Shown here: piece after piece, positions 2,453-31,070 of the stretch | Layout: every line of letters begins with the position of its first letter | Numbering within the stretch: the stretch's first letter is position 1 | DNA from: Candidatus Omnitrophota bacterium | GTDB lineage: Bacteria > Omnitrophota > Gorgyraeia > Zapsychrales > Fredricksoniimonadaceae | Assembly: GCA_903836515.1 (NCBI GenBank) | Contig: CAILQW010000050.1 | Span: 14,861-78,860, forward strand | Direction of reading: 5' to 3' | DNA length: 64,000 nucleotides | Notes under the pieces: model-generated | Database searches by the model: none | Told to the model about the DNA's origin: nothing | What the model saw: the letters and a program-made list of their open reading frames with translations, nothing else | Program-made: the position numbers and the translations under genes

Positions 2453-2506
2453 TGTCCTGATTAAGCGTTCAATTCATATATTAATTAACATTTAACGGGG
2501 TAAAAG

Positions 2507-2881: not shown

Positions 2882-2903
2882 TACCCAAGCCAAGGGAGGC
2901 GTG

Positions 2904-3233: not shown

Positions 3234-3254
3234 CCCTATAAAACAGGGTATCCT

Positions 3255-4646
3255 TTATGTCCTTCGGCCGTTTGGGATGACAGCTGCTTTTTCAACCGCT
3301 TCGGCGATCTTTTCGTGGACATTGATGTGCATGAAGTTGGGGACCAGGTCGTGCTTGCCGCTGAGTGAGGCGAGGGTTTCGGCCGCGGCGAATTTCATGG
3401 CGCTGGTGATTTTACCGGCTTTGGCGTTAATGGCGCCCTTGATGAGACCCGGGAACGCCAGCGCATTATTGATGGTCCTGCCGTCCATGGCAATGGCCGC
3501 ACCCGCCGCCAGGGCATCCTGGGGCCATATCTCCGGAACCGGGTTAGCCAGACTGAACACGATCGCTTTTTTGGCCATGCTTTTGACCATGGCTGATTTG
3601 ACAGCGCCCGCCGATGAAACACCAATAAGAATATCAGCGCCTTTAAGTGTGTCGGCCAGAGACCCGGTGATCTTCCTTATGTTGGTAACAGCCGCGATGG
3701 CTTCCTTGTAGGGGTTCATCCCATCCTTACGTCCGGCGTAGATGGCGCCGGTCCTGTCGCACAGGGTGATGTCCTTGAAACCGTATTCCAGCAATAGTTT
3801 GCACGCCGCCATGCCAGCAGCCCCTGCGCCGTTGATGACCGTGCGGACGGATTGTTTCTTTTTTCCGGTCAGCTTGAGGGCTTTGATCAGGGCCGCGAGG
3901 ATCACTACGGCCGTGCCGTGCTGGTCGTCATGGAACACGGGGATATTCACCCGTTCCTGGAGCGCCGCTTCAACCTCGAAGCATAGCGGTGCACTGATAT
4001 CTTCCAGCATGATCACGCTGAATGTTTTCGATAAAAGCGCCAGGGCGTCCACGATGGGGCCCGCATCACGGCTTTCCAGGAGTAAAGGGACACAGCTGAC
4101 GCCGGAGAACTTGTTGAGGATCATGGATTTGCCTTCCATGACAGGCATGGCTGCGAGAACGCCGATATCGCCCAGTCCCAGCACCGCCGAGCCGTTGGTG
4201 GCAATGCACACGGTGTTGCCGATGGAGGTATAGGTTCTGGCTCCTTCAGGATAGCGGTGGATGAACTGGCAGACCTGGGCCACGCCCGGCGTGTAGATCA
4301 TCCGCAGGTCGCTTAAGGTGTCCATCTTGACCCGGGGGGTCATGGCGACCTTGCCGCCCTTGTGGATCTCAAGCACTTCGTCTTCCACATCAAGAACCTT
4401 GTAACCTTTAAGTTTGTTAACGGCGCTGACAGCGGCGTTGAACTGTTCCTTGGTATCAAAGAAGATGGTGATGTCGCGGACGATGTAGTTGGACGTGACA
4501 TGCTCGGTCACGATATCGCCCAGGACCGCTCCCTGCGCGCCCAGGGCCGAGGCCAGGTGGCCGAGAGCACCGGGCACATCGGGGATGCGGAAGCGGATCT
4601 TTTTGACAAGCTTATGCGCGTATTTTTCCATCGGGGAATTTATCAT
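3255..4646 (-). CDS. NAD(P)-dependent malic enzyme with N-terminal ACT domain
   Basis: ACT-like N-terminus, then malic-enzyme core (MIYTPGVAQVC ... GNTVCIATNGSAVLGLGDIG ... NGAGAAG Rossmann motif). Confidence 0.85.
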   Translation of the reverse strand: MINSPMEKYAHKLVKKIRFRIPDVPGALGHLASALGAQGAVLGDIVTEHVTSNYIVRDITIFFDTKEQFNAAVSAVNKLKGYKVLDVEDEVLEIHKGGKVAMTPRVKMDTLSDLRMIYTPGVAQVCQFIHRYPEGARTYTSIGNTVCIATNGSAVLGLGDIGVLAAMPVMEGKSMILNKFSGVSCVPLLLESRDAGPIVDALALLSKTFSVIMLEDISAPLCFEVEAALQERVNIPVFHDDQHGTAVVILAALIKALKLTGKKKQSVRTVINGAGAAGMAACKLLLEYGFKDITLCDRTGAIYAGRKDGMNPYKEAIAAVTNIRKITGSLADTLKGADILIGVSSAGAVKSAMVKSMAKKAIVFSLANPVPEIWPQDALAAGAAIAMDGRTINNALAFPGLIKGAINAKAGKITSAMKFAAAETLASLSGKHDLVPNFMHINVHEKIAEAVEKAAVIPNGRRT

Positions 4647-4693
4647 GGGCGGTCCTGTTCGTCATGGATGATTAATAATCTGGTCATTATATA

Positions 4694-5011
4694 TCAAAGT
4701 TCCAGAAAAGAAAGCACAGGCGTGTGCGGCGTGATGCTGACAATGACAGGCTTGAGGCCTTGCAGGTCATGGCGCAGGGAGGCCAGTTGCTGTGGGGTGA
4801 TGGTGAAAGTAACACCGTGACCGGCGCTGTCGGTATTCATGGCTTGCCCGTTGAGCGTCCATGTCATGGGGTTTGGGTTTAGGTCAATACCGCTGAAAAT
4901 CATTCCCGGCGCTTCCGACGAGGACGTGCGGCACACGCTGTCGCTGGCGAGTGCGGTTTCATTGAATATCGAGACAGCCGGTGAGGCCAATTTCAAGCGC
5001 TTGAGCCACAA
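4694..5011 (-). CDS. Mini-protein consisting essentially of the GIDL C-terminal module (family copy A)
   Basis: C-terminal 66 aa SGIDLNPNPMTW...TPQQLASLRHDLQGLKPVIVSITPHTPVLSFLEL aligns with the C-termini of four other ORFs in the window. The track start appears to be a non-ATG codon. An internal ATG (MIFSGIDL) would give 69 aa. Confidence 0.4.
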   Translation of the reverse strand: MWLKRLKLASPAVSIFNETALASDSVCRTSSSEAPGMIFSGIDLNPNPMTWTLNGQAMNTDSAGHGVTFTITPQQLASLRHDLQGLKPVIVSITPHTPVLSFLEL

Positions 5012-5280
5012 AAAAAATTACACCCGGGATATCCTGGGAAGCATCCAGTTTATCAGCCGGTTGACAGCCAGAGGTTCTTCTTTTGAACGGGTCAAGCAGA
5101 CGACACAGTTTGTGGCCGGAGCCTCGGGGGAAGACCTTTTAACCGCCGCCGTCTTTTTATTATCTTGTCTTCTCTCGCAAGGGTTAATGCTGTATGATGA
5201 TATTTGTGCTGGTGGAGAATAGTTCGTCTATGAGCTCGTCGTTATGCCGTCGGAGAATCTTGGCACATCCAGGAGGGGCT

Positions 5281-5679
5281 ATGTACAGCAAGAAAATATT
5301 GGTCGTGGACAATGACAAGGATTTTCTTAAGGAACTGGAAGAGGTGCTGATGTTTAGCGGCTATCAGGTCATCGCGATGGACAATTCTTCCGCGGTGGCC
5401 GGGATTGTCGACCAGGTCAGCGTCGATCTGGTTCTCATGGACCTTCAAATGCCGGGGAAGACCGGGTTTGAATTGGCGTATGAGCTGAGGGATCTGCCGC
5501 GTTTTTATGATGTGCCGATCATTGCCATGACCGGTTTTTACAGGGAAGAATACGAGCCTTTGCTGAAGGCCTGCGGGATTTCGTATTGCCTCCAGAAGCC
5601 TTTTCATCCCTTGGATGTTATCGCGAAGGTCGAGGGTATCCTGGCTAAACACCCCAGTAAAGCATCGTCGATGTCTTGA
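5281..5679 (+). CDS. Single-domain response regulator (CheY-like receiver)
   Basis: KILVVDNDKDFL ... LVLMDLQMPGKTGFEL ... PIIAMTG receiver signature. The ATG at 5281 is preferred over the longer track ORF. Confidence 0.8.
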   Translation: MYSKKILVVDNDKDFLKELEEVLMFSGYQVIAMDNSSAVAGIVDQVSVDLVLMDLQMPGKTGFELAYELRDLPRFYDVPIIAMTGFYREEYEPLLKACGISYCLQKPFHPLDVIAKVEGILAKHPSKASSMS

Positions 5680-5688
5680 GAGGATGAT

Positions 5689-6237
5689 ATGAAATGCCCT
5701 GATTGCGACAATAAATTACAGGTATCTTCCTGCCGCGGGATCATCATTCATGAATGCCGTGTCTGTAAAGGGAAATGGTTCGAGCGTGATGAACTTAAAC
5801 GGGTCAAGGACAAGACGGATGAGGGGTTAAGGTGGATCGATTTCGATCCTTTCGGTCTGGAGACAGAAAGCAGGCGGGTTCCCTCCCATGGGAAATTTTG
5901 TCCCAGCTGCCATAATGGCATGGCGTTGATCCGCTACATGCACTCCGATGTTGTGATCGACAAGTGCTGTGCCTGTAAAGGGGTATGGCTAAGCTCGGGA
6001 GAGCTCAGAAAGATCATTGCGTACCTGGAACATCTGGTCAAGGATAAAGAAACCAAAACGCTGGCCAAGGACACCTTCAGGAAGTTTATTGAGGTCTTTT
6101 CTGGCCGCAAGGATATGACCGCAGAGATACAGGATTTATTCGCAGTCTTTTATCTGCTTGAATTGAAGATATCCATCGAGCATCCCGACCTCACCCTGGC
6201 GACCCAGAAAATCTATGAAGCGGTCCCTTTCATTTGA
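5689..6237 (+). CDS. Zinc-ribbon (zf-TFIIB-like) domain protein
   Basis: Two CPxC...(17-19)...CxxCKG(K/V)W(F/L) repeats (CPDCDNKL...CRVCKGKWF; CPSCHNGM...CCACKGVWL), then a helical C-terminal part. Confidence 0.6.
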   Translation: MKCPDCDNKLQVSSCRGIIIHECRVCKGKWFERDELKRVKDKTDEGLRWIDFDPFGLETESRRVPSHGKFCPSCHNGMALIRYMHSDVVIDKCCACKGVWLSSGELRKIIAYLEHLVKDKETKTLAKDTFRKFIEVFSGRKDMTAEIQDLFAVFYLLELKISIEHPDLTLATQKIYEAVPFI

Positions 6238-6327
6238 CGCAGGTGTTTTGTGCCTCCCTTTATTCCTTGTAATTTTATGCCATCGTATAAAAGAATATGA
6301 TATGATTATCAAAATTATACGTAATCT

Positions 6328-6861
6328 TTGACGCGGAGGGATGGTATGGGAGAGAAAAAGCTCAAGATGATCGCGTTGGTTCTGGCTGCAGCCCTGGTCG
6401 TTGTGATCCTTGTCCTGGTTAAAGTTTACGCTGATGGCGCTGAAGCGTCAAAACAGCTGGAACTGCAATCCAGTGACAGTGTGTCCGCCAGGCAAAAGAG
6501 CGATGCGGCCATCAAGAAATTGACGGAGCAGTCATCGGTCAAAGATAAGGAAACGGCCGCGTTGAGCGACGAATTAAACGGGGTGAAGGCCGAATTGAAA
6601 GATGCCAAAGAGGCCTTGACGGGATCCAAGAGCGATCTTGAAGTCCTGGACAAGAAAGCCATTGCCTTGACGGAGCAGGTTTATAACGCCAAAAAAGAAT
6701 TGGCTGCCAAGACAGATGAATTGAAGGCAGCTGAAAATAAAGCGGCGGCATTATCAGATGAATTGACGTCGGTTAAGAAAGAACTTATAGATACCAAGAT
6801 CCTCCTGGAGTCAAACAAGGAAAGATCTGTTGGTATTCCTTCACTAACGCCGGTCAAATAG
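6328..6861 (+). CDS. Membrane-anchored coiled-coil protein (hypothetical)
   Basis: N-terminal TM helix (IALVLAAALVVVILVLV), then low-complexity heptad-like A/E/K/L-rich sequence. Confidence 0.45.
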   Translation: MTRRDGMGEKKLKMIALVLAAALVVVILVLVKVYADGAEASKQLELQSSDSVSARQKSDAAIKKLTEQSSVKDKETAALSDELNGVKAELKDAKEALTGSKSDLEVLDKKAIALTEQVYNAKKELAAKTDELKAAENKAAALSDELTSVKKELIDTKILLESNKERSVGIPSLTPVK

Positions 6862-6951
6862 ACAGGGCTGATCCTTGATCTGCTTGACAGATCTAAAACC
6901 CTCCGTACTCTGGTTGTACGGAGGGTTTTTGGCAATTTTTATGGGAAAAAC

Positions 6952-8343
6952 ATGAATCTTTTTGTATATGGCATGATGACATGTGTGTGTGCCGGTTTTT
7001 TGGCCGGTTGCGCGGTGGGGCCTGATTTTCACCCACCCGCCGCCACCTTGATGGCCGCGGACATTCCAGGGGAATGGTGGGGCTTGTTCAAATCTCCGGA
7101 ACTGGATCGCCTTATCCGTGGTGCCCTGGCGGATAATCCTACGCTTGAGGCGGCGCAGGCGGCGTTGCGTCAGGCGAGGGAAGATCTTAACGCCAGAGCG
7201 GGGGGCGAATATGTTCCGGAGGTGAATGGTTCCCTCTCAGCGTCCCGGCAGAAGACATCGTCAGCGGCCATGGGGCTTCCGCAAGGTCCGGCAAGTATTT
7301 TTACCCTCTACCATGCTTCGGTCAATGTTTCCTATGTGTTTGATGTTTTCGGACGCGGCAGGAGGGAACTTGAAGCGCTCAGGTCTTTGGTGGATTATCA
7401 GGCTTACCAGCATGAAGCCGCACGCCTGGCGCTGACAGCCAATATCGTGACAACGGTTATCATGGAAGCTTCCTTGCGGGAACAGGTCCAGGCCACCCTG
7501 CAGATCATGGCTATCCAGCAGAAACATCTGATCATGCTCAGGAAACAGCAGGATCTGGGTGGTGTTTCGCGTGCCGAGTTTTTGTCCCAGCGCACGGAAT
7601 TCGAACAAACCCGTGCCCTTTTGCCCCCCCTGCGTCGTGAGCTTTCGCAGCTGCGGTATCACCTGACAGTATTGGCCGGAAAAATGCCGGTTGAAGCGCG
7701 CCGTTTTCCTAAATTTCATCTGGCCATGCTTCATTTGCCCCTAGGGCTTCCTTCCGGGCTGCCTGCATCTCTCACGCGTCAGCGCCCGGATCTCCAGGCG
7801 GCGGAAGCGCTCTTGCATGCGGCGAGTGCCCGGGTAGGTGTTGCCACCGCAGATCTTTATCCCCGGATAACGTTAAACGGCAGTTATGGACGTTCTTCGG
7901 CAGGTTCGGGAAATCTTTTTGATGCCAACAACGCGGTATGGGATCTTGGGGCGGGATTGGTGCAGCCGCTGGTTAACGGAGGGGCGCTGCGCGCCAAACG
8001 CCGCGGAGCAGTGGCGGCGATGGATGAGGCGTCGTCCCGGTTCAGGCAAACGCTCCTGATGGCATTCGAGGATGTGTCCAATGCGCTCAGGGCCCTGGAA
8101 GAAGATGGTATGGCCTATCAGGCAAGGGTTGCGGCGCAAAGCGCTGCGCGTGATTCGCTGACACTGGCCCGTGAACAGTTTGTTTCCGGCGCGGCCAGCT
8201 ATATTCTGCTGTTAAATGCCGAGCGCCAATATCAACAGGCCTGTATCGCGCTCATTCAGGCCAGGTCAACGCGTCTGGCAGATGCTGTTGCATTATTCCA
8301 GTCATTGGGCGGTGGTTGGTGGAACCGTACTAAGGAGAAATGA
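6952..8343 (+). CDS. RND efflux outer-membrane factor lipoprotein (TolC/NodT family)
   Basis: Lipoprotein signal (FLAGCAV), two OEP-type helical repeats, first gene of a three-gene efflux operon. Confidence 0.85.
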   Translation: MNLFVYGMMTCVCAGFLAGCAVGPDFHPPAATLMAADIPGEWWGLFKSPELDRLIRGALADNPTLEAAQAALRQAREDLNARAGGEYVPEVNGSLSASRQKTSSAAMGLPQGPASIFTLYHASVNVSYVFDVFGRGRRELEALRSLVDYQAYQHEAARLALTANIVTTVIMEASLREQVQATLQIMAIQQKHLIMLRKQQDLGGVSRAEFLSQRTEFEQTRALLPPLRRELSQLRYHLTVLAGKMPVEARRFPKFHLAMLHLPLGLPSGLPASLTRQRPDLQAAEALLHAASARVGVATADLYPRITLNGSYGRSSAGSGNLFDANNAVWDLGAGLVQPLVNGGALRAKRRGAVAAMDEASSRFRQTLLMAFEDVSNALRALEEDGMAYQARVAAQSAARDSLTLAREQFVSGAASYILLLNAERQYQQACIALIQARSTRLADAVALFQSLGGGWWNRTKEK

Positions 8344-9476
8344 TCATGGGTAAACGGATGTTGATCATGCTGATGGTCGTCGGGATTGTGTTTGGTGGCC
8401 TTTTTGGCTATCAGGCATTTATGCGTTCCATGATGAAGAAATACATGTCCAGCGGTAAAGTGCCGCCTGTGACAGTTGCTGCAATGAAAGCCACGATCAG
8501 CCCCTGGCAGACCTTGATCAGGGCAACCGGGACCCTGCGGGCTGTCAAGGGCGTGGATGTGACCACGGAGGTTTCGGGGATCATCCAAGGTGTGTTTTTT
8601 ACATCCGGCAGTGCTGTCAAGAAAGACCAGATCCTGCTGAAACTTAACACGGACACGGATGTGGCTCAGCTACATGCCCTGGAGGCGGCGGCCGGACTGG
8701 CGAAGACCGTTTATGCGCGCGATAAAAAGCAGTTGAAGGTGATGGCCGTGAGTCAGGCGGTTGTGGATGCGGATGCCGCGGATCTGAAAAACCGCCGTGC
8801 CCAGCTGGCCCAGCAGGCAGCGGTCATCCGTAAAAAGATCATCCGTGCGCCCTTTGACGGGAAGCTGGGTGTGAGTGCGGTCAACGCCGGGCAATACCTC
8901 AATCCAGGGGAAAAGATCGTGTCCCTGCAGGATCTGGATCAAGTGTTCGTCGATTTTTATCTGCCCCAGCAGGAATTGTCACGGGTGAAGGTCGGGCAAA
9001 TGGCCGCCATGGCCATTGATGCGGTGCCGGACCGTGCGTTCCGGGGGAAGATCACGGCCATTAATTCAAAGGTTGATCCGGATTCACGCAATGTCCTCAT
9101 CGAGGCATTGATCGGCGAAGCGCGCGGCGCGCTCCTGCCCGGGATGTTTGCTTCTGTCCGTATTGAAGCCGGGATACCGCAGGAATATGTGACCCTCCCG
9201 CAGACAGCTGTCAGTTTTAATCCTTACGGGGAGACAGTCTTTATTGTTCAGCCTTCGCCCAAGGATGCCCAGGGGCCTGAGGTGCTGACGGTCAGGCAGG
9301 TTTTCGTCAAGGTCGGCGAACTGCGCGGCGACCAGGTGAGCATCCTCGAGGGGGTCAAACAGGGGGACCTGGTAGTCACCAGCGGTCAGCATAAACTCAG
9401 GAATGGGAGTGTGGTCCTTATCAATAACTCCATCCAGACGTCCTCAGACCAGGCCCCGCAGCCGGTGGATCAATAA
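8340..9476 (+). CDS. RND efflux periplasmic adaptor (membrane fusion protein, AcrA-like)
   Basis: N-terminal TM, biotinyl/lipoyl-like and beta-barrel HlyD-type segments. Start overlaps the OMF stop. Confidence 0.85.
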   Translation: MIMGKRMLIMLMVVGIVFGGLFGYQAFMRSMMKKYMSSGKVPPVTVAAMKATISPWQTLIRATGTLRAVKGVDVTTEVSGIIQGVFFTSGSAVKKDQILLKLNTDTDVAQLHALEAAAGLAKTVYARDKKQLKVMAVSQAVVDADAADLKNRRAQLAQQAAVIRKKIIRAPFDGKLGVSAVNAGQYLNPGEKIVSLQDLDQVFVDFYLPQQELSRVKVGQMAAMAIDAVPDRAFRGKITAINSKVDPDSRNVLIEALIGEARGALLPGMFASVRIEAGIPQEYVTLPQTAVSFNPYGETVFIVQPSPKDAQGPEVLTVRQVFVKVGELRGDQVSILEGVKQGDLVVTSGQHKLRNGSVVLINNSIQTSSDQAPQPVDQ

Positions 9477-9503
9477 ACCCGGCGGGATAAAGGAATATTC
9501 TTT

Positions 9504-12500
9504 ATGTTTTTTACGGATATCTTCATCAAACGTCCGGTCCTTGCCGTTGTTATAAGCCTCCTGATCCTTCTTTTGGGCTGGCGTTCCGTCATGCTTTTAA
9601 GTGTGCGCGAATATCCCCAGACCCAAAACGCCGTGGTTACGGTCACGACAGTTTATACAGGAGCGGATCCGGCGCTTGTGGCCGGATTCATTACAACCCC
9701 GCTTGAAAATTCTGTGGCCCAGGCCAACGGGATCGATTATCTCACATCGGCCAGCAGCCAGAGCGTGAGCGTCATCAAGGCCAACCTCCGCCTGAATTAC
9801 GATGCCAACAAGGCACTGACCGAGATCAATACCAGGGTGAATGCGGTGGTGAATCAACTGCCCAAGGAGGCCCAGCAGCCTGCGATAACGGTGGCGGTCG
9901 GGGAGTCAGTTGACTCGATGTACATCGGTTTCTACAGCAAAGTCCTTCCCACCAACAAGATCACCGATTACCTCATCCGTGTGGTTCAGCCGAAATTGCA
10001 GACGGTCGAGGGCGTCCAGACGGCCGAGATATTGGGCAGCCGCACCTTTGCCCTGCGGGCCTGGCTTGACCCCGAAAAGATGGCTTCTCGCGGCGTCACC
10101 GCTACCCAGGTCAATGATGCGCTGGCGGCCAATGATTTTATCGCGGCCGTAGGGCGGACCCGGGGGCAGATGGTGAGTGTGGATCTTGCCGCCAATACAG
10201 GGATGCATTCTGTCGAGGAATTCCGGCGGCTTATCATCAAGTCATCGGGAGGCACTGTGGTGCGCCTGGAGGATGTGGCACGTGTCACCCTGGGGTCCGA
10301 GGATTATGACACAGCGGTCGCTTTTGACGGCGATAATGCGGTTTTCATCGGCATCAAGGCCGCCCCCAGCGCCAATTTACTGAAAGTGATCGAGGGCGTT
10401 CGTAAGGTTTTTCCCGATATCAAGGATCAGCTTCCCGATGGCCTTGAAGGGCGTGTTGTTTACGATGCAACCGAGTATATCAATAGTTCCATTCATGAGG
10501 TTATAAAGACCCTTGTTGAGGCGTTGATCATTGTGACGCTGGTCATCTTTCTTTTCCTGGGATCTTTTCGTTCGGTGGTTATCCCGACGATCGCCATGCC
10601 CTTGTCGCTGGTGGGTACTTTTTTTGTCATGTTCCTCATGGGGTATACGATCAACCTCCTGACCCTCCTGGCCCTTGTTCTGGCCATCGGTCTTGTGGTG
10701 GATGATGCGATCATCGTGGTTGAAAATATCCATCGTCATATTGAAGAGGGGCTTTCGCCGATGGACGCGGCCATCAAAGGTGCCAGTGAACTTGCCGGAC
10801 CGATCCTGGTCATGACGCTTGTGTTGGTTGCCGTTTATGTGCCCATCGGGTTTATGGGAGGATTGACCGGTGCTTTGTTCACGGAATTTGCCTTTACGCT
10901 GGCGGGCGCCGTTTCGGTATCGGCGCTTGTGGCGCTGACGCTCTCACCCATGATGTGTTCGGTTTTTTTGCGCCAGCATGACACCGGTGCCAGGAAGTCT
11001 TTGACCGCATTCGTGGACACAAAGTTTGAACGCCTGCGCGGGGGGTATCAGAAAACGCTCCATGGTGCCTTGGACACGCTGCCGGTGGTCGCTGTTTTTG
11101 CCGTCCTTATTTTGGCGAGCAATTATTTTCTTTATATGAATGCGAAAAGCGAACTGGCGCCCCAGGAAGACCAGGGATTTATCCTTTCTTTGTATTCAGG
11201 GGCCCCTGATGCCTCGCTGGATCAAACGCTGCTTTATTCCAGGGAGGTCCACCGGGTTTTATCCGCTTACCCTGAAACCGCGCACATTTTTCAGATCGAC
11301 GGGCTGGGAGGGCTCAATGCCGGGATCGCGGGACTTGTCCTCAAGCCCTGGGATGAACGGAAACGTTCTTCTGTTACATTGCAGGAGGATATTCAAAAGA
11401 AGCTGGCAGGGATGGCCGGTGTCAACGGCGTCGCGTTTCTTCCGCCGTCACTGCCTGGCGGCGGGGAAGGCCTACCGGTGCAGTTTGTCCTGCAGACGAC
11501 AGATTCTTTTGAACGCCTCAATGAGGTGGCTTTAGCGTTCCTGGATAAAGCACGGGCCAGCGGGATGTTCATTTTCCTGGATTCCGATCTTAAGATCGAC
11601 AAGCCGCAGGCCGAGGTTTCCATTGACCGCGAAAAGGCTGCCCGGATGGGGCTGTCCATGCGGGATGTGGGCGGGGCCATGGGGGCCATGCTGGGCGGCG
11701 GGTATGTGAATTATTTCAGCCTGTCGGGGCGTTCGTACAAGGTCATCCCGCAGGTCATGCAAAAAGAACGTTTAAACCCCGACCAGATCAGAAATTATTC
11801 CATCACCACATCCAGCGGGGCGGTGGTCCCCTTGTCAACCATCGTGACGTTGTCCACGCGTGTGGTGCCGCAGGCGCTTAATCATTTCCAGCAGCTTAAC
11901 GCGGCCACCATTTCGGGAGTACCCATGCCCGGCATTCCTCTGGGGCAAACGCTGTCCGCCATGAAAAAAATCGCCGGGGAAGTCCTTCCCGAAGGGTATG
12001 CTGTCGATCATGCGGGCCAGTCGCGGCAGTTTGTGCGGGAGTCCAGTGCCATCATGTTCACGTTTTTCTTTGCACTGCTTATTATCTTCCTGGTGCTGGC
12101 CGCGCAGTTTGAAAGTTTTCGCGACCCGCTCATCATCCTTGTCAGCGTCCCGATGTCCATCTGCGGTGCCATGATCTTTATATCTCTTGGGATCGGCGGG
12201 GCCAGCCTCAATATTTATACCGAGGTGGGACTGGTGACCCTGATCGGGCTGATCAGTAAACACGGAATCCTGATTGTGCAATTTGCCAATGACCTTCAGC
12301 GTCAGGGCATGGCCAAACGCCAGGCGGTTGAGACAGCGGCCGGCATACGCCTGCGCCCCATCCTGATGACGACGGCCGCCATGGTTTTGGGGGTGATGCC
12401 GCTGGTCCTCGCCACCGGTGCCGGCGCCGCCGGCCGTTTCAATATGGGGCTTGTGATAGCCGCCGGGATTGCCATTGGAACGCTGTTCACCCTTTTTGTT

Positions 12501-16424: not shown

Positions 16425-17225
16425 ATGGGTTTGTCCAAGGATACGAGCTGGGCGGCTATACTTCGCAAATCTGTTTTTTTACTGATCTTTCTTATTCTGA
16501 TGCCAAGGGCATTCGCAGGATCGCCCAGCATCGACGCTGGCGGTTTCGGGTTTGACGTCCAGAGTGTTTCTATCGGAGATTGGGAGGGCAAAAGGTATCT
16601 CGTTATATTTTTTCGTTTCACGAACAAGACGCCTTCCCGTAAAGTTGACCTTGATCGCGCTTTTCAGTATACCCTCTCTGATAACCTGGGCAATCATTAC
16701 CGCCAGCTCCCGGTTCCTAAAGATTACACCAAGCCCCTGGATGAGCTGTCACCGAATTTTCCGAGTGTTTACCCGGGTGACGCATGTGCAACCACATTAT
16801 TCTTTGAAGCGCCTGTGCCCAAGGCGGCCTCTCTTAAGTTAGACGTTCTGGCAGATATTATTGGTCTTCATACGCCAGTGGGGCTTGAATTCTCTTTGGG
16901 CCGCTATGCCGATGATGGGGATAACAATGCCATTGATATTGCAAGCCCCGGGAACGGGGATGTCTTCGCCCCTGGGGATATGTTTCCGTTGCACGTCCGG
17001 ATCCGCTCGGCCGCGGCGCCTCACAAGATCATTGTCGTTGCTTTTGGCCGCACCTTCGAAGATGCGGCACCTGGGGTTGATAATACGTACACTATTACAA
17101 TTCCCTCTGGCTGTCCTGCGGGGGAATCCGGGATCAGCGTCATTGGGAAATGGGACACGCCTAATATCAGCGGGCAGGTTGCCTCAAAGAACATTGTTGT
17201 TCAGGTTCATCTTGCAAGTCGTTGA
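16425..17225 (+). CDS. Secreted hypothetical protein
   Basis: N-terminal signal peptide (FLLIFLILMPRAFAG), then a beta-rich sequence. No family recognised with confidence. Confidence 0.45.
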   Translation: MGLSKDTSWAAILRKSVFLLIFLILMPRAFAGSPSIDAGGFGFDVQSVSIGDWEGKRYLVIFFRFTNKTPSRKVDLDRAFQYTLSDNLGNHYRQLPVPKDYTKPLDELSPNFPSVYPGDACATTLFFEAPVPKAASLKLDVLADIIGLHTPVGLEFSLGRYADDGDNNAIDIASPGNGDVFAPGDMFPLHVRIRSAAAPHKIIVVAFGRTFEDAAPGVDNTYTITIPSGCPAGESGISVIGKWDTPNISGQVASKNIVVQVHLASR

Positions 17226-17282
17226 GCGGGTTCTTATGTTGTGTTAGGGGTATGTTATACTTGGCGTACGGAGGTTGGTGAC

Positions 17283-17714
17283 ATGCGGTATTTTGTGTTA
17301 GGCATCAGTTTTTTCATCCTTTTGGCAAGGCCGTTGCCTGTGCTTCACGCCCAGGAAATCCAGCCGGCGACTGTTCCTTTCAATGAGGCGACTGAAGAAG
17401 ATATTGACCCTCAGGATGTAGAAAAGGCGCCGGCCATTGAGAAAGTGTACAAGCCTGAAGACAAGGCTGTCAAGAAGGCGCGTCTTCGCCTGATCGCAGA
17501 GCGCAAGAAAGCCGAATTGGCCAAGCTCAAGGCCCTGCAAAAAGCAAGGGCTGAATTAAAGCGAAAAGAGGCTGACCGGCTTAAAGCCAGGGCGAGGGCC
17601 AGTGCCGAGGACCGCAAGAAAATTAAAGAACTGAGGAAGAAAAGAGAAATCAAGATGCGGGATCTCAAACGCAATCAGCGGATGCGTCGGAATCGTTACA
17701 AAACATCTTCTTGA
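17283..17714 (+). CDS. Secreted highly basic K/R-rich coiled-coil protein
   Basis: Signal peptide (FVLGISFFILLARPLPVLHA), then a KKARLRLIAERKKAELAKLKALQKARAELKRKEADRLKAR low-complexity charged segment. The ATG at 17283 is preferred over 17241. Confidence 0.45.
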   Translation: MRYFVLGISFFILLARPLPVLHAQEIQPATVPFNEATEEDIDPQDVEKAPAIEKVYKPEDKAVKKARLRLIAERKKAELAKLKALQKARAELKRKEADRLKARARASAEDRKKIKELRKKREIKMRDLKRNQRMRRNRYKTSS

Positions 17715-18388: not shown

Positions 18389-19233
18389 AAATACCTCGGG
18401 TTCTTGTCGTTTACAAGCGTAGCTCATTGTCCGTTGCCGGCAAGCTGGCATCGCGCCTGCGCCACATTGCGCGTTTTCAGGCGAACCATGCCGCGCATGG
18501 TGCCACCCTGCGTGTTGTTGAAGAAGTCCTCGTCAAGAACGGCATTCCGTATCACAAACATGTGCGCGGGCCGCATGTGGATTACGCACCGTATGACCTT
18601 GTTATCACGGTAGGCGGTGACGGGACCGTCCTGGGGGCGGCGCGTGCGGTGACCGGTCGTCAGGTCATTTTGGGGGTTAACTCGGATCCGTCCTGGAGTG
18701 TGGGCAAGTTTTGTTACGCCAATGCCGGCACATTCGAGCCGTTCCTTAAAGCGTTTTTATCAGGCCAAGCCAGGATTTGCCGGCTTTATAAACTTAAAGT
18801 ATGCCTTAATGACAGCAAGACTGTGCGCCGCATGGAATGCCTCAACGACATTTTGATATGTCATGCCAATCCGGCGGCCATGAGCCGTTACATGATCGCC
18901 GTCGGCCGGGAAAAGGAAGAGCAGCGCGATTCGGGGATATGGATATCCACGGCGGCAGGTTCAACCGGGGCCATTGCCTCGGCCGGCGGGGTACAGATGC
19001 CTCTTTCTTCGACAGATCTTCAGTATAAGCCCAGGGAGCTTTATTGCGGCCGCGGAGCCCGGTATCATTTGACCGGCGGTTTTGTGGCGCGTCCCGGCCG
19101 TATTGTTATCGAGTCCATGATGCCGCGCGGGCTGATTTTTGTCGACGGGTCGCATGTCAGGCTGCCTTTCACGTACGCCAGCCGTGCCGAGGTGTTTTCG
19201 TCGCCTCATTTTATCCAGCTTGTTCATGCCTGA
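18385..19233 (+). CDS. nadK: NAD+ kinase
   Basis: GGDGTVLGAARA motif and DG(S)HV C-terminal region typical of NadK/PpnK. Confidence 0.85.
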   Translation: MKIPRVLVVYKRSSLSVAGKLASRLRHIARFQANHAAHGATLRVVEEVLVKNGIPYHKHVRGPHVDYAPYDLVITVGGDGTVLGAARAVTGRQVILGVNSDPSWSVGKFCYANAGTFEPFLKAFLSGQARICRLYKLKVCLNDSKTVRRMECLNDILICHANPAAMSRYMIAVGREKEEQRDSGIWISTAAGSTGAIASAGGVQMPLSSTDLQYKPRELYCGRGARYHLTGGFVARPGRIVIESMMPRGLIFVDGSHVRLPFTYASRAEVFSSPHFIQLVHA

Positions 19234-20281
19234 TACATTTGCCATCCAACTCCTGCGCTGGTACCGTGTGCACGCGCGTGACCTTCCGTGGCGGCATACA
19301 CGCGATCCGTATTCTATATGGATATCCGAAGCCATGCTCCAGCAGACGACCGTTAAGACGGTCTTGGGGTATTACGCCCCGTGGCTGGCAGCATTTCCGG
19401 ATGTGTACGCGCTGGCATCGGCACCCATCGAGAAAGTCCTGAAGGCCTGGCAGGGGCTTGGTTATTACAACAGGGCCAGAAACCTTCACAAGGCGGCCGG
19501 AATCGTAGTAGCGCAATTCCAGGGGCATGTTCCGCAAGATCCCGACATTCTCAGAAAGCTTCCGGGGTTCGGCCCGTATATGTCGGCATCCGTGGCCAGC
19601 ATCGCTTTTGACCGGCGTGTACCGCTGGTCGACGCCAATGTGCGGCGTGTCATGATGCGTATTTCCAATATTCACGGCCCGGCATCAGGCACTTGGGATA
19701 AAGATATTCTGATATTCCTGGATCGGGTCATGCCGGCACATCGCGCCGGTGATTTTAACCAGGCGTTGATGGAGCTTGGTGCTCTTGTTTGTACAAGTCA
19801 ACAGCCCAAGTGCAACATGTGTCCGCTGACACGGCATTGCCGGGCTTTTGAAAAAGGCCAGCAGGAGCTTATCCCGGAGCCAAAAAAAGTTTCTTTAAAC
19901 GAGATTACGGCCGTTATTGGTCTTGTCAGGGATAAAAAGAAGTATCTGATCCAGCAAAGGCCTGAGAAAGGACTTTTGGCTGGCATGTGGGAATTTCCAG
20001 GGGGAAAGGTTGGAGCATCAGATAAGTCGTTCAAAGAGGCATTAAAGCGTGAGTTGATGGAAGAATTGGGTGCGGTATGTCGGGTGAATGAAGAATTCTG
20101 CCGGGTGAGGCATTATTATACAACAAACAAAGTCCAGTTGATTGCGTTCAATGCTGTGTTGAAGGGCGGCTTTAAGCCCAGGGCCAATCAGCGCTGGGTG
20201 AGCGTTGGAGATTTGACGGCGTATCCGATGCCGTCAGGGAGTGCCAAGATTGTGGTTAAACTCCTGGAAAACAATCCTTAA
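19230..20281 (+). CDS. mutY: A/G-specific adenine DNA glycosylase MutY with C-terminal NUDIX-like domain
   Basis: HhH-GPD core (WYRVHARDLPWR ... EAMLQQTTV), [4Fe-4S] cluster loop cysteines (CTSQQPKCNMCPLTRHC), C-terminal MutT-like [10 protein letters not shown] domain. The ATG at 19230 is preferred. Confidence 0.85.
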
Positions 20282-20418: not shown

Positions 20419-22491
20419 CTAGCTGATCCTGTTGTGTTGATTGTGATTGGTGATGACTCGCCTGATGTGTTCGAGGTTGGCTCGGGTCGCGGCTTCCCCG
20501 CGCTTGATCAGTTCTTCAGCCTGATTAAGCTCATACCAGTTCAATCCTGAAAGGTCCGGATGGATCACGATATCGGCATGCTGCCCGCTTTGCTGGGCCA
20601 GCACGTTTTCCGAGGCTTCCAGGGTGCGCACGATGATGTCGGAAATATTCGGGAAGAAACTCCGATTGACCCAGAATTTAAGGTGAATGCCCATGTAAGT
20701 CAACGGGGCCTGAACAAACCGGACCTGCAGGGATCTTTCAATCTCCAGGCGTGTTTTTTCATACCCCTTGATCACATCTTCCGGTGTCTGAAGCACGTTC
20801 ACGGCAATGATGCGTTTCACGCCCGCCTGTACCAGCACATTTGTTGGTAAAGGGTTCATGACGCCGCCATCAATGATGAGCTGGTCATGAGAAACGATCG
20901 GCTGGAAAACGCCCGGGATAGAGATACTTTTACGGATCGCTTCGACCAAAGAGCCTTGTTCGATGATGAGGTCACGCCGATGAATAAGGTCGTAGGCTAT
21001 GATTTTTAAAGGGATTTTGGTGTCACGGAATGTCCGTTGCCCGAATTTCCCACGAAGCCAGGACATGACAGCTTTGCCGCTGATGAGTCCCGAGAGCGGA
21101 AAAACAATGTCGATCAGTTTGATGAGATTTGAGCGTTTCTTGAACTCATAGGCCATTTTTTCGATGTCCGCAGCCATATAACCTGTGGCCCAAAGGCTTC
21201 CGATCAAAGCACCCATGGAGCTGCCCGCCACAATATCCACCGGAATGCCTTCTTCTTCAAGGACTTTAAGGACGCCGATATGCGCCAAACCAAATGCGGC
21301 CCCGCCGCCCAGAACCAGCCCGATGGAAACTCCCGATATCTGCCTTGAGATGCGCGTGATCATCTTGCGGTAATTGCTGGCAGGATCAAGCCCCATAAAA
21401 GACACTGCCGGCAGGTTGACCATGGTGTCAAAATCCTTGCGCTGGATATGCGGCAGGAATGCTGTGACATCATAGTCCAGGAGGCTGCGGACAGTGTCTT
21501 CGGAAATATTGCGGTGGGCGTGGACGCCGCCGATGATGACCTTGACGCGTTCTTCTGTAAAGTCTTCCTTAAACGTTTCTTCAATGCGGTCCAGGACAGA
21601 TCTTCCTGTGGCCAGGGCCTCGCGTTTGCGAACCATGACCAGGTGGACCAGGTCGGATTGCGACAGGGTTTTCATCACCACCGCGTCCATGTCGCTGGGA
21701 AGGTCGACAATGACATAGCGGTATTCATCGATGAAGCGGCTGATGAATTCGCTGATATGTTCCACGATAGACTGGTTATTTTTGTCAAAGGTGACGTTGA
21801 GGAAATCGACGCCGATATCGCTTTTGATAATATGCTCAGGGATAAGTTCGAAATCTTTTGCCAGGGCCACAATATCCTGGGCCGGCTGGTTCCATTGCGG
21901 GCGCACCTCTTCGATGTCGGACATCGGGGTGTGGGCCGGTACGTTTCTGGAGCGGAGGCTGACCCAGATCACCCTCTCCCCTGTTTCCCTGGCAAGGCTT
22001 GTGGCAAGGTTGACGGCGTAGGTCGACCCGCCTGACCCCGCAATGGGGGCGTAAACCGCAATAATTGTGCTGCGATTTACCAGCTGGGTCCGTGTGACTT
22101 TGCTGCGGATGCGCTGGGAAAGGATCTTGCTGAATTTTATCCCCAGTTGAGGGGATTGTTTGAGTATCCGGCGGAACTCGGAATATGAGATGCGGAAGAT
22201 CACAGAGTCGTTGATAGCTTCAAATGTCTGGGAGTGCACTTCGCCTGTGAGCGCGGAAATGATCCCGAAAAACATGCCGCGGTGGATGAATTCTATGTCG
22301 TCTTTGCCGCCGGAAGCATCGGGGGCGAAAGACTCAAGCCGTCCGGAAACAAGGAAGTAGACAAAGTCCGGCGCCTGTCCCTGTCGGGAAACGCTTTCGC
22401 CTTTTTTGTAGAAAACAATTTCACCGGATCGGGCAATGGCCTGGACCCGGTACCAGTTGAGACCTGAAAAGACAGGTATTTTCTTGACCAT
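20419..22491 (-). CDS. cNMP-binding / degenerate ParA-MinD-like / patatin-like phospholipase fusion protein
   Basis: N-terminal cyclic-nucleotide-binding fold (IPVFSGLNWY ... GEIVFYKKGE ... GMFFGIISALTG). Middle P-loop-NTPase-like segment IIAVYAPIAGSGGSTYAVNLATSLA lacking the Walker-A lysines. C-terminal patatin motifs GLVLGGGAAFGLAHIG (GxGxxG), AGSSMG (GxSxG) and DGG. The ATG at 22491 (MVKKIPVF) is preferred to avoid overlap with the upstream SDR gene. Confidence 0.7.
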   Translation of the reverse strand: MVKKIPVFSGLNWYRVQAIARSGEIVFYKKGESVSRQGQAPDFVYFLVSGRLESFAPDASGGKDDIEFIHRGMFFGIISALTGEVHSQTFEAINDSVIFRISYSEFRRILKQSPQLGIKFSKILSQRIRSKVTRTQLVNRSTIIAVYAPIAGSGGSTYAVNLATSLARETGERVIWVSLRSRNVPAHTPMSDIEEVRPQWNQPAQDIVALAKDFELIPEHIIKSDIGVDFLNVTFDKNNQSIVEHISEFISRFIDEYRYVIVDLPSDMDAVVMKTLSQSDLVHLVMVRKREALATGRSVLDRIEETFKEDFTEERVKVIIGGVHAHRNISEDTVRSLLDYDVTAFLPHIQRKDFDTMVNLPAVSFMGLDPASNYRKMITRISRQISGVSIGLVLGGGAAFGLAHIGVLKVLEEEGIPVDIVAGSSMGALIGSLWATGYMAADIEKMAYEFKKRSNLIKLIDIVFPLSGLISGKAVMSWLRGKFGQRTFRDTKIPLKIIAYDLIHRRDLIIEQGSLVEAIRKSISIPGVFQPIVSHDQLIIDGGVMNPLPTNVLVQAGVKRIIAVNVLQTPEDVIKGYEKTRLEIERSLQVRFVQAPLTYMGIHLKFWVNRSFFPNISDIIVRTLEASENVLAQQSGQHADIVIHPDLSGLNWYELNQAEELIKRGEAATRANLEHIRRVITNHNQHNRIS

Positions 22492-22519
22492 GGAACAGCA
22501 CTGGAAGAATGAGGCTTCT

Positions 22520-23398
22520 TCACGCATGGGGTTTGGTAGTCCCACGGAAGAAAATCCTGGCGACAGCCCAGGCGTAAAGTTCAAAAGGGATATGGCGTAC
22601 AACCCAGCAGCGCAGGCGGGAAAGAAGGCCGATAATATTGCGGAAGCGGGTATGCTCCTGTGTGGCCAGGGCGCTGATGACTTTGGCCACTTCTTCCGGA
22701 GAACGCCGTGACCGGCGCAGGTAACTGTCTACAAATGATTTTAACTGGCAGCTCATGGCGTAATACGGGCTGTCCTTGCGGTTGAAATTTGCGGCGTAGC
22801 GTGCATTCTCGGTAAATATCCTGGTGCGGTAGGATCCTGGTTCCACCAGGATAACATCGATGTGGAAGGGTTTAAGTTCCATATAAAGGCATTCGGAGAA
22901 TCCCTCGAGCGCCCATTTGCTGGAGGCATAGGCGCTGAAAGCCGGTGATCCCGAAAAGGCCGCCATGCTGGAAATATTGATGATGCGTCCCGCTCGCCGG
23001 GGGCGCATGACAGGAAGGACTTCGCGGGTGACATTCAGGACCCCGAAAAAGTTGGTGTCAAATTGCCTGCGCCAGTCTTCGTCCGAAAGATCTTCGAAAA
23101 ATCCACCAATCCCGAACCCCGCGTTGTTGATGAGGACATCGATGACGCCTTCGCGGGAGGCTATTTCGGTGACCACGGCTTTGATCGACACCGGGTCAGC
23201 GACATCCATGGCGTGTACTGAAAGATTTTTGGCGCCGCCGCGCGAGGCTGTCTCGACGTGCAGATGCTGAGATTTCTTAAGGTCGCGCACGCAGGCATGG
23301 ACACGATGACCTTCGCCGGCCAGGCGTGCCGCGGACAACAGTCCAAATCCGCTTGAACATCCGGTGATCAGGATAACACGTGAGCGTCGGACGGCCAT
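22520..23398 (-). CDS. Short-chain dehydrogenase/reductase (SDR) family oxidoreductase
   Basis: ILITGCSSGFGL Rossmann motif, NNAG, catalytic YxxxK (YASSKWA). Confidence 0.8.
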   Translation of the reverse strand: MAVRRSRVILITGCSSGFGLLSAARLAGEGHRVHACVRDLKKSQHLHVETASRGGAKNLSVHAMDVADPVSIKAVVTEIASREGVIDVLINNAGFGIGGFFEDLSDEDWRRQFDTNFFGVLNVTREVLPVMRPRRAGRIINISSMAAFSGSPAFSAYASSKWALEGFSECLYMELKPFHIDVILVEPGSYRTRIFTENARYAANFNRKDSPYYAMSCQLKSFVDSYLRRSRRSPEEVAKVISALATQEHTRFRNIIGLLSRLRCWVVRHIPFELYAWAVARIFFRGTTKPHA

Positions 23399-29627: not shown

Positions 29628-31070
29628 ATGAAGATTGCTATCCTCAACCCCTCATTTGGCAAGAACTTTGTCCGCGTTGCCCGCTGGGCGGCCCGGTCGC
29701 GGGGGCGTGTTCAGCGTCATCCCGATTATTTGCTCATCGCGGCCCAGGTCCTCCTGGATGCCGGCCATGAGGTGATTTTCGTAGAAGCCGCGGCATGCAA
29801 TATGTCACCGGAGGAAAGTTTCAAGGTCATCCGGGCGTTTACGCCGGAACTGCTCGTGATCCATGCCACGACCCCATCGATTTATGCGGACATGGAACAG
29901 GCCCGCACGATCAAGGCGCAGAATGACTGCCGGGTGGTCTTTGTCGGCCAGCATGTGAGTGCAGAACCCCTGAATACGTTTGAGATAGCCCGCGGCGCCG
30001 TGGATTATATCCTGCGCGGCGAATATGATCACTCCTTGCGCGATCTGGCCAATGGTTTGCCCTCTGGGGATATCAAGGGGATGAGCTGGCATAACGGGCA
30101 GACTGTTATTACCAATCCCGACCGTCCTGCCCTGGATGTGAACGAGCTTCCCTTCCCTGCCTGGCATTTGATCAAGCCGGAGTGGTATCCGGATGCGGGT
30201 AAGAAATTCCCATTCTTGACGCTGTTCACCGGGCGCGGGTGCAATAATGCCTGCAGTTTTTGCCGTGATCCTCAGCTCATGTATGGCTATCGTTTGCGTA
30301 ACCGTGATGCCCAACGGGTCGTCGACGAAATGGAATTCGACCTTCGGTTGTTCCCCGGTATCCGTGAGATCATGTTCGAAACAGATACTTTTGCAGCCGA
30401 TCCCAAACATGTTCAGGCGGTTTGCCAGGAGATCATCCGGCGGGGCCTTCACACGAAGATATCCTGGTCCTGCAATATGCGCATTAATACGGACCTTGCC
30501 CTGCTTCCTTTAATGAAGAACGCCGGCTGCCGCATGCTTATGGTCGGGTATGAATTCGGCACGGATGAGACCCTGCGCGCGGTGCGCAAGGGCGATGTGA
30601 ATGTGGCCATGGGCCGGCGATTCAGCCAAAGAGCTCATGAACTGGGGTTTACCCTGCACGGGTGTTTTATGATCGGCGCTCCCGGGGAAACCCATGAAAG
30701 CGCCCGCGCCACCATCGATTATGCCAAGTCCATGACCCTGGATACCATCCAGATCACAGGGATCGCCACATACCCTGGCACGCATCTTTATAGTTGGGCC
30801 AAAGAGAACGGGTATCTGCTGGCCAAGGACTGGACCGACTGGCTGACGGCGGAAGGCGAACAGAAAACCCTGCTGTCGTATCCCCAACTTTCCAACAAAG
30901 AGATCGATACCCTTATTGATACCGGCCTGAAAGAATTCTACCTGCGCCCCGTTCAGATGTGGCGCATGCTGGTCAGCATCCGTTCCGTGGGAGATCTCCT
31001 ACGGAAACTCTACGGCCTGGGGGCATTCATCGATTATTTCTGGAAGAAAATCATTCGGTCACACCCATAA
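29628..31070 (+). CDS. B12-binding-domain radical SAM protein
   Basis: N-terminal cobalamin-binding-like Rossmann region, then radical SAM CxxxCxxC motif (GRGCNNACSFC). 480 aa. Confidence 0.8.
   Translation: MKIAILNPSFGKNFVRVARWAARSRGRVQRHPDYLLIAAQVLLDAGHEVIFVEAAACNMSPEESFKVIRAFTPELLVIHATTPSIYADMEQARTIKAQNDCRVVFVGQHVSAEPLNTFEIARGAVDYILRGEYDHSLRDLANGLPSGDIKGMSWHNGQTVITNPDRPALDVNELPFPAWHLIKPEWYPDAGKKFPFLTLFTGRGCNNACSFCRDPQLMYGYRLRNRDAQRVVDEMEFDLRLFPGIREIMFETDTFAADPKHVQAVCQEIIRRGLHTKISWSCNMRINTDLALLPLMKNAGCRMLMVGYEFGTDETLRAVRKGDVNVAMGRRFSQRAHELGFTLHGCFMIGAPGETHESARATIDYAKSMTLDTIQITGIATYPGTHLYSWAKENGYLLAKDWTDWLTAEGEQKTLLSYPQLSNKEIDTLIDTGLKEFYLRPVQMWRMLVSIRSVGDLLRKLYGLGAFIDYFWKKIIRSHP

Follow-up and report, generated by a model that had tools for sequence, protein, structure and literature searches.

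This locus raises the question of what a ParA/MinD-like domain that has lost its Walker-A lysines is doing between a cyclic-nucleotide-binding (CNB) fold and a patatin lipase. The locus lies in a stretch of 64,000 nucleotides (nt) from a Candidatus Omnitrophota genome (GenBank assembly GCA_903836515.1, contig CAILQW010000050.1, positions 14,861 to 78,860 of the forward strand), hereafter the window. The gene in question, the target gene, is complete and occupies 20419..22527 on the minus strand. As judged from its open reading frame (ORF), translation, and homologs, it encodes 702 amino acids (aa) plus a stop codon and consists of a CNB-fold domain, a predicted ParA/CpaE-type pseudo-ATPase, and a patatin esterase of the neuropathy target esterase (NTE) type. 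The best explanation, which we consider fairly probable, is that the product is a soluble cytoplasmic patatin esterase of the NTE (PNPLA6-like) branch, with a full-size CpaE/ParA-derived pseudo-ATPase in its middle and a regulatory N-terminal module.

An earlier note on this DNA, made from the sequence alone, had placed the gene at 20419-22491. The reverse strand of that span is a stop-free reading frame of 690 aa in translation, so the reading frame stands, on the minus strand, but the start codon does not. Homologs share the N-terminal motif M-x-E-x-A-S-F-[FL]-Q-R-C-S ahead of the methionine at which the shorter form begins, and because the window counterpart, MREEASFFQCCS, matches this motif, the true start is placed at the ATG at 22527 rather than at 22491, and the gene at 20419-22527. 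The resulting N-terminal extension of 12 residues (22492..22527, minus strand) is conserved in homologs and is absent from the shorter span. A TTG start at 22602, which would give an ORF of 727 aa, was ruled out, as homolog N-termini lie 12, not 37, residues upstream of the same methionine. Residue numbers below refer to the 690-aa form unless 702 aa is stated.

A Pfam search of the 690-aa protein yielded cNMP_binding at residues 26-112 (E=3.8e-17), AAA_31 at 142-307 (E=5.9e-8; 33.3 bits, with the cut-off at 27), and Patatin at 392-553 (E=2.9e-31), in that order, in agreement with the earlier claim of a cNMP-binding, a ParA-like, and a patatin domain in one chain. The three domains abut directly, and all of them are under purifying selection. 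No transmembrane segment that might act as a membrane anchor was predicted, and the highest 19-residue hydropathy (1.85) belongs to the buried strand 1 of the patatin domain.

The middle domain (21328..22080, minus strand; residues 138-388) has a ParA/MinD (SIMIBI) fold, as indicated by the AAA_31 match, by profile matches to PDB sequences, and by an AlphaFold2 (AF2) model compared with Foldseek. A profile built from the middle domains of 28 diverse homologs (A1), each of which matches AAA_31 (28/28), finds ParA-family proteins end to end in PDB, with 3EA0 first (E=4e-12), followed by PF-32, Soj, ParA, VpsO, and MinD. The AF2 model (pLDDT 87.9, pTM 0.88) likewise returns 3EA0 as its top Foldseek match, along with MinD, FlhG, ParA2, FleN, Soj, and TadZ, all with a probability of 1.0; the Foldseek comparison gives 3e-13 with a TM of about 0.67-0.72. 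The relation to ParA/MinD that had first been read from a single segment, IIAVYAPIAGSGGSTYAVNLATSLA (residues 143-167), thus extends over the whole domain, and the region did not turn out to be unrelated to P-loop proteins.

The Walker-A-like loop of this domain, PIAGSGGST (22021..22047, minus strand), stands where canonical members have xKGGxGK[ST]T. In the profile alignment, KGGVGKTT of Soj pairs with IAGSGGST, which is one residue off the register proposed earlier; the conclusion that the lysines are lost is unaffected, because the loop holds no lysine anywhere. Across 117 full-length homologs, to which all of the column counts given here refer, the position of the P-loop lysine (Gly155 in the window protein) is occupied by Ser in 78, Gly in 31, Asn in 5, Ala in 2, and Thr in 1, with Lys in 0/117, and the position of the signature lysine (Ile150) holds V/I/L/M and other residues, with Lys in 1/117. 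A proper alignment therefore confirms the reported loss of both Walker-A lysines. The switch-I-equivalent strand, VIWVSLRSRN (21943..21972, minus strand), also lacks both catalytic aspartates of the canonical hhhhDxDxQ (Asp in 2/117 at Ser178 and in 1/117 at Arg180) and is followed by a variable, low-confidence loop, the pLDDT dropping to 66-79 there. The Walker-B-like strand YVIVDLP (21697..21717, minus strand) keeps its aspartate (Asp263, 114/117) and its proline (117/117). The roles of the Walker-A lysines and of the switch-I and Walker-B aspartates in MinD/ParA ATPases are well established, and because both lysines and the switch-I aspartates are gone, ATP hydrolysis by the middle domain is very unlikely. 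Judged by these residues, the middle domain of the window's clade is a putative pseudo-ATPase. The description of the loop as degenerate is nevertheless misleading, as few segments of the domain are better conserved than P-x-x-G-[ST]-G-x-S-T (Gly154 in 117/117, Ser156 and Thr157 each in 116/117). Because it is under strong purifying selection, the loop is not simply decaying.

Two further observations concern these lysines. In many relatives with the same three domains (P0233, P0237, P0239, P0244), a lysine stands one position past the canonical signature-lysine site (x-K-G-x-G-K/R-[ST]), and the same lysine is found in 38/117 of the close homologs (V-K-G-[ST]-G-S-S-T), the window protein having Ala at this place (residue 151); such a lysine may be a displaced signature lysine. 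The closest solved structure to the middle domain, 3EA0, an uncharacterized 'ParA family ATPase' of Chlorobium tepidum, carries KGGDGGS, in which Gly replaces the P-loop lysine, and lysine-less ParA-like proteins therefore occur free-standing too.

The middle domain had also been regarded as a peculiar insertion, and this view is contradicted by its relatives. The Pfam family PF24179, 'Neuropathy Target Esterase family P-loop like domain' (NTE_Ploop), already holds this exact place in canonical NTE-family proteins. A distant match in a Chloroflexi metagenome-assembled genome (MAG), L025, has two canonical CNB domains, a middle region that is PF24179 (E=2.6e-21), and a patatin domain. P0179 (1331 aa) has NTE_Ploop at 807-1023 and Patatin from 1028, P0186 (1132 aa), from the mollusc Solemya velum, has NTE_Ploop directly between its last CNB domain and patatin, and P0158 (607 aa), from Acanthopleuribacter pedis, combines a single CNB domain (39-121) with NTE_Ploop (152-309) and Patatin (327-486). 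The succession of CNB, P-loop-like domain, and patatin is the standard NTE architecture, in bacterial and eukaryote-sized proteins alike, and the supposed insertion is therefore the normal middle domain.

Profile-profile comparison carries this likeness beyond domain order. When flanking regions are included, hhalign aligns the Omnitrophota proteins with the NTE family without a break (E=3e-55): the alignment opens at the Walker-B strand, crosses the junction helix and the patatin domain, and reaches the C-terminus. The junction helix, NYRKMITRISRQISGV (21328..21375, minus strand; helix 243-256 of the AF2 domain model), leads into patatin strand 1, and the junction RIARQISGVSVGLVLGGG pairs with RLARLLTGxGVGLVLGGG of bona fide NTE-family proteins. 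With the middle domains alone, A1 aligns with the NTE_Ploop profile (A2) at P=0.0014 (108-180 with 65-131), and an independent run gave P=0.011 in the same register; the portion that aligns is the Walker-B strand together with the strand that follows it (Q[SA]D-hhhLV, in the window protein QSD-hhhLV). For a bona fide NTE_Ploop domain modeled with AF2 (pLDDT 94.2), the best matches among solved structures are MipZ, 3EA0, BchL, FlhG, BcsQ, PF-32, ParF, and Soj; 3EA0 ranks first for the Omnitrophota domain model and third for the NTE_Ploop model. The earlier suggestion of an NTE-like protein is upheld by the shared layout, by a score of 207 bits against an NTE-type profile, and by the hhalign result of E=3e-55. 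With moderate confidence, we regard the protein as a divergent NTE-family member whose middle domain is homologous to NTE_Ploop but far less eroded.

Like NTE/PNPLA6, the protein has CNB, P-loop-like domain, and patatin in this order and directly adjoining, and the junction helix, the NTE-type patatin, and the C-terminal extension are common to both; according to the models, both middle domains have a ParA/MinD-type fold. It differs in that the Omnitrophota middle domain is an AAA_31 domain of about 250 aa (NTE_Ploop has about 160-220 aa) that retains a full-length P-loop, the Walker-B aspartate, and the C-terminal ParA elements, and in that the phosphate-binding cassette (PBC) of the CNB domain is of a His type rather than an Arg type, the oxyanion motif lacks its arginine, and there is no transmembrane anchor. 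Rv2565 presumably has an NTE-like architecture as well. It has been listed as a mycobacterial esterase (PMC10865251). A search of the literature on the NTE P-loop, PF24179/NTE_Ploop, and Omnitrophota patatins found no description of such a protein or domain. The three-domain layout itself is already known and does not constitute a new system, and the three domains can be seen in automatic annotation.

The CNB-fold domain (CAP/CRP-type; 22156..22416, minus strand; residues 26-112) finds PKG, PKA-R, SthK, and CRP among PDB sequences. In CRP and PKA, the PBC glutamate is established to contact the ribose 2'-OH and the PBC arginine to contact the phosphate. The cassette of the window protein, FGIISALTGEVHSQ (22228..22269, minus strand), is non-canonical at both positions: alignment to the CNB domains of PKG and PKA turns FGE...RSAT into FGI...HSQT, the ribose-contacting Glu being replaced by Ile and the phosphate-contacting Arg by His. 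The equivalent of the arginine is His in 117/117 homologs, and that of the glutamate is Ile, Val, Met, or Leu in 117/117. Hence, while the cNMP-binding fold at the N-terminus is real, the role of cNMP sensor that had been attached to it is unsupported, because the two canonical cNMP contacts are absent from the cassette. Among 61 tabulated representatives of the wider tripartite group, the His is found in 57, and the Glu is retained in deeper members; a PBC of the His type thus characterizes the group as a whole. For the CNB domains of eukaryotic NTE there is likewise no evidence of cAMP binding, and the R region that contains them restrains binding to lipid droplets (PMC6995513).

The patatin catalytic domain (20833..21318, minus strand; residues 392-553) has PlpD as its best solved match (5fqu, E=1.8e-30). 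The catalytic motifs (GGGxxxG, GxSxG, DGG) are present and essentially invariant: the nucleophile elbow GSSMG with the catalytic Ser425 (21211..21225, minus strand) has each of its G, S, S, and G in 117/117 homologs, and the DGG motif with the catalytic Asp541 (20863..20871, minus strand) is found in 117/117. One correction applies to the Gly-rich oxyanion motif, GGGAAFG (21289..21309, minus strand), in which the usual basic residue (the Arg of GGGxRG) is Phe (residue 400). At this position, where PlpD has the Arg of SGGAARG and the NTE consensus that of GGGGARG, the 117 homologs have Leu in 81, Phe in 35, and Tyr in 1, and only 9/61 of the wider tripartite representatives have Arg or Lys. ATGL-type neutral-lipid lipases have Leu at the oxyanion position (GCGFLG motif), and the missing arginine may point to a neutral-ester, non-phospholipid substrate. 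Downstream, a C-terminal extension (PNISDIIVRT ... ADIVIHPDL; 20452..20832, minus strand) common to RssA- and NTE-type patatins was recognized by NCBIfam and hhalign. In NCBIfam, residues 388-680, that is, the patatin core and this extension, align over the whole RssA (YchK) model, at 122 bits against an equivalog cut-off of 272. The patatin half scores 207 bits with a profile of 58 NTE_Ploop-containing proteins, 122 bits with the RssA model, and 109 bits with PlpD, and these scores suggest that it is NTE-type rather than RssA-type. Neither the RssA nor the PlpD match reaches upstream of residue 388, leaving the CNB and P-loop-like regions uncovered, and PlpD further differs in having GGAARG with Arg where the window protein has Phe. 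From its conserved residues, the Ser-Asp esterase of the NTE type is predicted to be intact.

At least 863 homologs came up in a word-indexed search. Nearly all of the best 120 have 677-729 aa and the same architecture. Their sources are Candidatus Omnitrophota MAGs, and the names given to them are 'patatin-like phospholipase family protein', 'NTE family protein', or, in JGI, 'RssA/BcsQ'. Among GTDB species representatives, there are 24 family loci in Omnitrophota or in probably mislabelled bins, in addition to the Chloroflexi locus L025. Three loci that carry the target gene are labelled 'uncultured Planctomycetales' (L003, L009, L015) and two 'Elusimicrobia' (L013, L024); these labels are probably wrong, as the loci share the same gene, and L003, L009, and L013 also the Acn-LeuCD-AroC-SDR synteny, with Omnitrophota loci. 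An exhaustive profile search with the middle domain retrieved 3008 proteins at E<=1e-3. Tripartite proteins rank first, and beneath about 1e-15 there are many proteins of about 400 aa with a receiver domain and AAA_31, one of them named CpaE at its source. On this ranking, the closest free-standing relatives of the middle domain are CpaE-type ATPases. Like the target protein, CpaE/TadZ-type proteins have a sensor-type N-terminal domain ahead of a ParA-like domain. The CpaE relatives found differ in having canonical KGG[VI]GK[ST]T and DLDLQF motifs, a receiver instead of a CNB N-terminal domain, and no lipase domain. The role of CpaE/TadZ-type proteins lies in the localization of pilus machinery and not in lipid hydrolysis.

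Among the 61 tripartite representatives, 30 retain Lys or Arg in the P-loop, and most of these keep the first switch-I aspartate as well; P0257 (Omnitrophota), the P0270 cluster (Verrucomicrobiae), and P0313 (Lindowbacteria) belong here. Further representatives have fully scrambled loops (e.g., HNEPEHTA, SSETNNIR). GxSxG and DGG are essentially always intact across all 61.

The patatin region was also placed in a neighbor-joining (NJ) tree with NTE_Ploop-type proteins as the root. GK[ST] is found on its basal branches, and the window protein falls in one nested clade that is lysine-less throughout, so that the lysine-less clade would be a derived, nested crown group.

Several points weigh against the preferred explanation of an NTE-branch esterase with a pseudo-ATPase as its non-catalytic middle. 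The NJ tree is without support values, so the polarity of lysine loss is indicative only. Lipid-catabolic neighbors, described below, occur in one sub-clade only, and the other sub-clades have unrelated housekeeping neighbors. In addition, G-[ST]-G-x-S-T and the Walker-B aspartate are very strongly conserved, and because of this the pocket is probably still functional and a pure scaffold may be too simple a description. As to the homology of the two middle domains, the PF24179 hidden Markov model (HMM) detected 0/28 family members at E<=10, reciprocal HMMER scores of HMM against sequence between the Omnitrophota domain and NTE_Ploop were 7 bits or less, and the N-terminal half of the middle domain (strand 1, loop, and helix 1) does not align locally with NTE_Ploop. 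Because similarity at the HMMER level is absent, homology of the middle domains by themselves rests on a modest profile-profile P together with position and fold.

The conservation of the loop leads to an alternative that we regard as possible though doubtful, namely that the middle domain is a ligand-binding switch that does not hydrolyze, the loop and the Walker-B aspartate still binding a nucleotide or some other phosphorylated ligand (ATP/ADP, acyl-CoA, or a lipid head group) and thereby controlling dimerization or the lipase. Conservation of Gly154, Ser156, and Thr157 (116-117/117) and of Asp263 (114/117) is far above the mean column identity of the domain (52%), the loop has the same length as KGGxGK[ST]T and a pLDDT above 90, and a solved ParA-family protein, 3EA0, likewise has Gly for the P-loop lysine. 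Retention of GK[ST] in the deeper relatives also makes a nucleotide-controlled ancestor plausible. By contrast, the P-loop lysine is, as established family knowledge has it, needed for ATP binding in MinD/ParA-type ATPases, and here the signature lysine and both switch-I aspartates are lost too. Moreover, scrambled loops combined with intact lipase motifs in other lineages imply that an ordered P-loop is not generally needed by the lipase.

The missing HMMER-level similarity bears on a different alternative, that a CpaE/ParA-type domain was recruited in a fusion separate from the NTE_Ploop event, the common position being convergent or the result of domain replacement. Such an origin would also fit the observation that the NTE_Ploop profile matches no P-loop protein by sequence in PDB, where it gave spurious TIM-barrel matches only, as well as the greater length of the Omnitrophota domain (by about 70 residues) and the different CNB types, with a His-type PBC here and a canonical Arg type in NTE_Ploop proteins. 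A comparison by hhalign of A1 with the single-sequence middle region of L025 gave a probability of 0.2%, profiles being required on both sides. However, the profiles of the middle domains alone align in register (P=0.0014) and continuously with the junction helix and patatin, both models share the same class of closest structures, including 3EA0, domain order and direct abutment are identical, and the patatin half is nearer to the NTE type than to RssA. We consider an independent fusion distinctly unlikely and favor common descent with NTE_Ploop.

Homology to NTE_Ploop and the ligand switch can also be combined: the tripartite proteins of the AAA_31 type would then represent the ancestral, ATP-gated state of NTE, and the window's clade would have re-purposed a lysine-less pocket. 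In this scenario, which taken as a whole we think rather unlikely, the CpaE/ParA-like ATPase would have been a nucleotide-dependent dimerization switch between a ligand sensor and the patatin lipase, and the lysine-retaining relatives in Omnitrophota, Verrucomicrobiae, and Lindowbacteria would be ATP-gated lipases. In the lysine-less clade, the G-S-G-x-S-T pocket and the His-type CNB pocket might sense another phosphorylated metabolite or a lipid head group.

Under the preferred explanation of a soluble NTE-branch esterase, the CNB and pseudo-ATPase domains would together form a non-catalytic regulatory or scaffolding module. In eukaryotic NTE, catalytic activity is located in a C region whose beginning lies about 300 residues ahead of the patatin domain (PMC6995513). 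By analogy with the way the R region restrains the C region in NTE, the module may hold or release the esterase under the control of a ligand, probably one other than cAMP or cGMP. The esterase, in turn, might deacylate membrane or neutral lipids and so feed fatty acids to turnover or beta-oxidation.

The genomic context was compared among related loci. Directly upstream of the target gene lies a short-chain dehydrogenase (SDR) gene (22520..23398, minus strand; Pfam adh_short, E=8.6e-52), whose stop codon overlaps the target ATG at 22520-22527 (minus strand; ATGCGTGA). This overlap suggests translational coupling, and the SDR and target genes are probably co-transcribed. The adjacency of the two genes is conserved only in the window's clade, in 14 related loci (L001-L013 and L022). 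These have aconitase, LeuC, LeuD, chorismate synthase, SDR, and target genes in that order, or part of the order if the contig is cut short, and on the opposite strand the target is followed by MutY-like, NAD kinase, and HAD genes. Elsewhere the surroundings differ. L019 and L020 (about 1334-9666) have AMP-binding (acyl-CoA-synthetase-like), thiolase, VLCAD-type acyl-CoA dehydrogenase, target, and NmrA/DUF2867 genes, with the target about 35 bp downstream of the acyl-CoA dehydrogenase, and in L015 and L021 (4103-5965) a homolog of this dehydrogenase is directly upstream of the target. L014, L017, and L018 have an RNA methyltransferase gene upstream, and L014 and L017 also an aminotransferase gene downstream. 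The arrangement in L019 and L020 looks like a beta-oxidation-type operon and gives no more than a hint of a lipid-catabolic role. In this comparison of related loci, synteny was clade-specific and no neighbor was conserved family-wide.

This context also speaks to the analogy, drawn in the earlier note, with signal-activated lipase effectors, which proved to be a similarity at the level of domains only. Both CBASS CapV and Pycsar CNB effectors follow the logic of a nucleotide sensor joined to a membrane-damaging or lipid-cleaving effector, and a cyclic-nucleotide-activated phospholipase of this sort, destroying the membrane once a cyclase is triggered, would be an anti-phage effector. PADLOC models of PycTIR and TIR effectors do match the CNB region (E about 1e-8), those of CBASS phospholipase effectors match the patatin region (E about 1e-5), and there are weak NCBIfam matches to CBASS_lipase and DS2_1_antiphage. 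However, no cyclase family was found among the ten neighboring gene products scanned by Pfam, the scan for cyclases being confined to these within the 64-kb window. Nine of the ten are housekeeping products (SDR, AroC, LeuCD, aconitase, MutY-like, NAD kinase, HAD, and QueH), and one is without a Pfam match. Gene order is stable in the 14 related loci, as it should be for a housekeeping gene passed on by vertical inheritance, and the family extends across Omnitrophota with its 863 or more members. The target protein also differs from the CBASS and Pycsar effectors in its non-canonical PBC, which lacks the cNMP-binding Arg and Glu, in its extra ParA-like domain, and in its lipase, which appears to be NTE-type and not CapV-type. 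With no cyclase in the ten neighbors, housekeeping or lipid-catabolic synteny, and PADLOC matches at the domain level only, the defense reading is largely refuted, and we consider an anti-phage effector highly improbable.

Other genes near the target deserve brief mention. No second CNB, ParA-like, or patatin gene was found in the window. The MutY-like gene (HhH-GPD and NUDIX_4; 19139-20281, plus strand) has strong PADLOC matches to 'Type II nicking endonuclease' and PDC-S07, which look like shared domains rather than evidence of defense; its real start is probably further downstream, because with the listed TTG it would share about 95 bases with the NAD kinase gene. An ORF at 16425-17225 (plus strand) has a hydrophobic N-terminus and no Pfam match, and is weakly conserved (about 30%) beside HAD and NAD kinase genes in related loci, and another at 17241-17714 (plus strand) is rich in Lys and Arg and of low complexity. 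Just past the aconitase gene, an ORF of 480 aa (29628-31070, plus strand) contains the CxxxCxxC motif GRGCNNACSFC, a motif typical of radical SAM enzymes.

NTE/PNPLA6 is a disease gene in humans, and no mechanism has been assigned to the greater part of the protein outside its catalytic portion, the segment immediately before patatin included. A 2025 review describes segments of this kind as still poorly defined (PMC13224342). Pfam labels the pre-patatin region of NTE merely 'P-loop like', whereas the Omnitrophota version is a full ParA/CpaE-type module, and a ParA/CpaE origin of the NTE P-loop-like domain is probable. Among the relatives, the loop grades from an intact GK[ST], by way of a form that is conserved but lysine-less, to scrambled versions, which suggests that the ancestral enzyme may have been nucleotide-gated. 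The small, soluble bacterial proteins of this family are on offer for probing how a sensor and a P-loop-like domain control a lipase. If the tripartite AAA_31-type proteins do represent the ancestral, ATP-gated state, they would provide a tractable bacterial model of the unexplained regulatory region of human PNPLA6/NTE.

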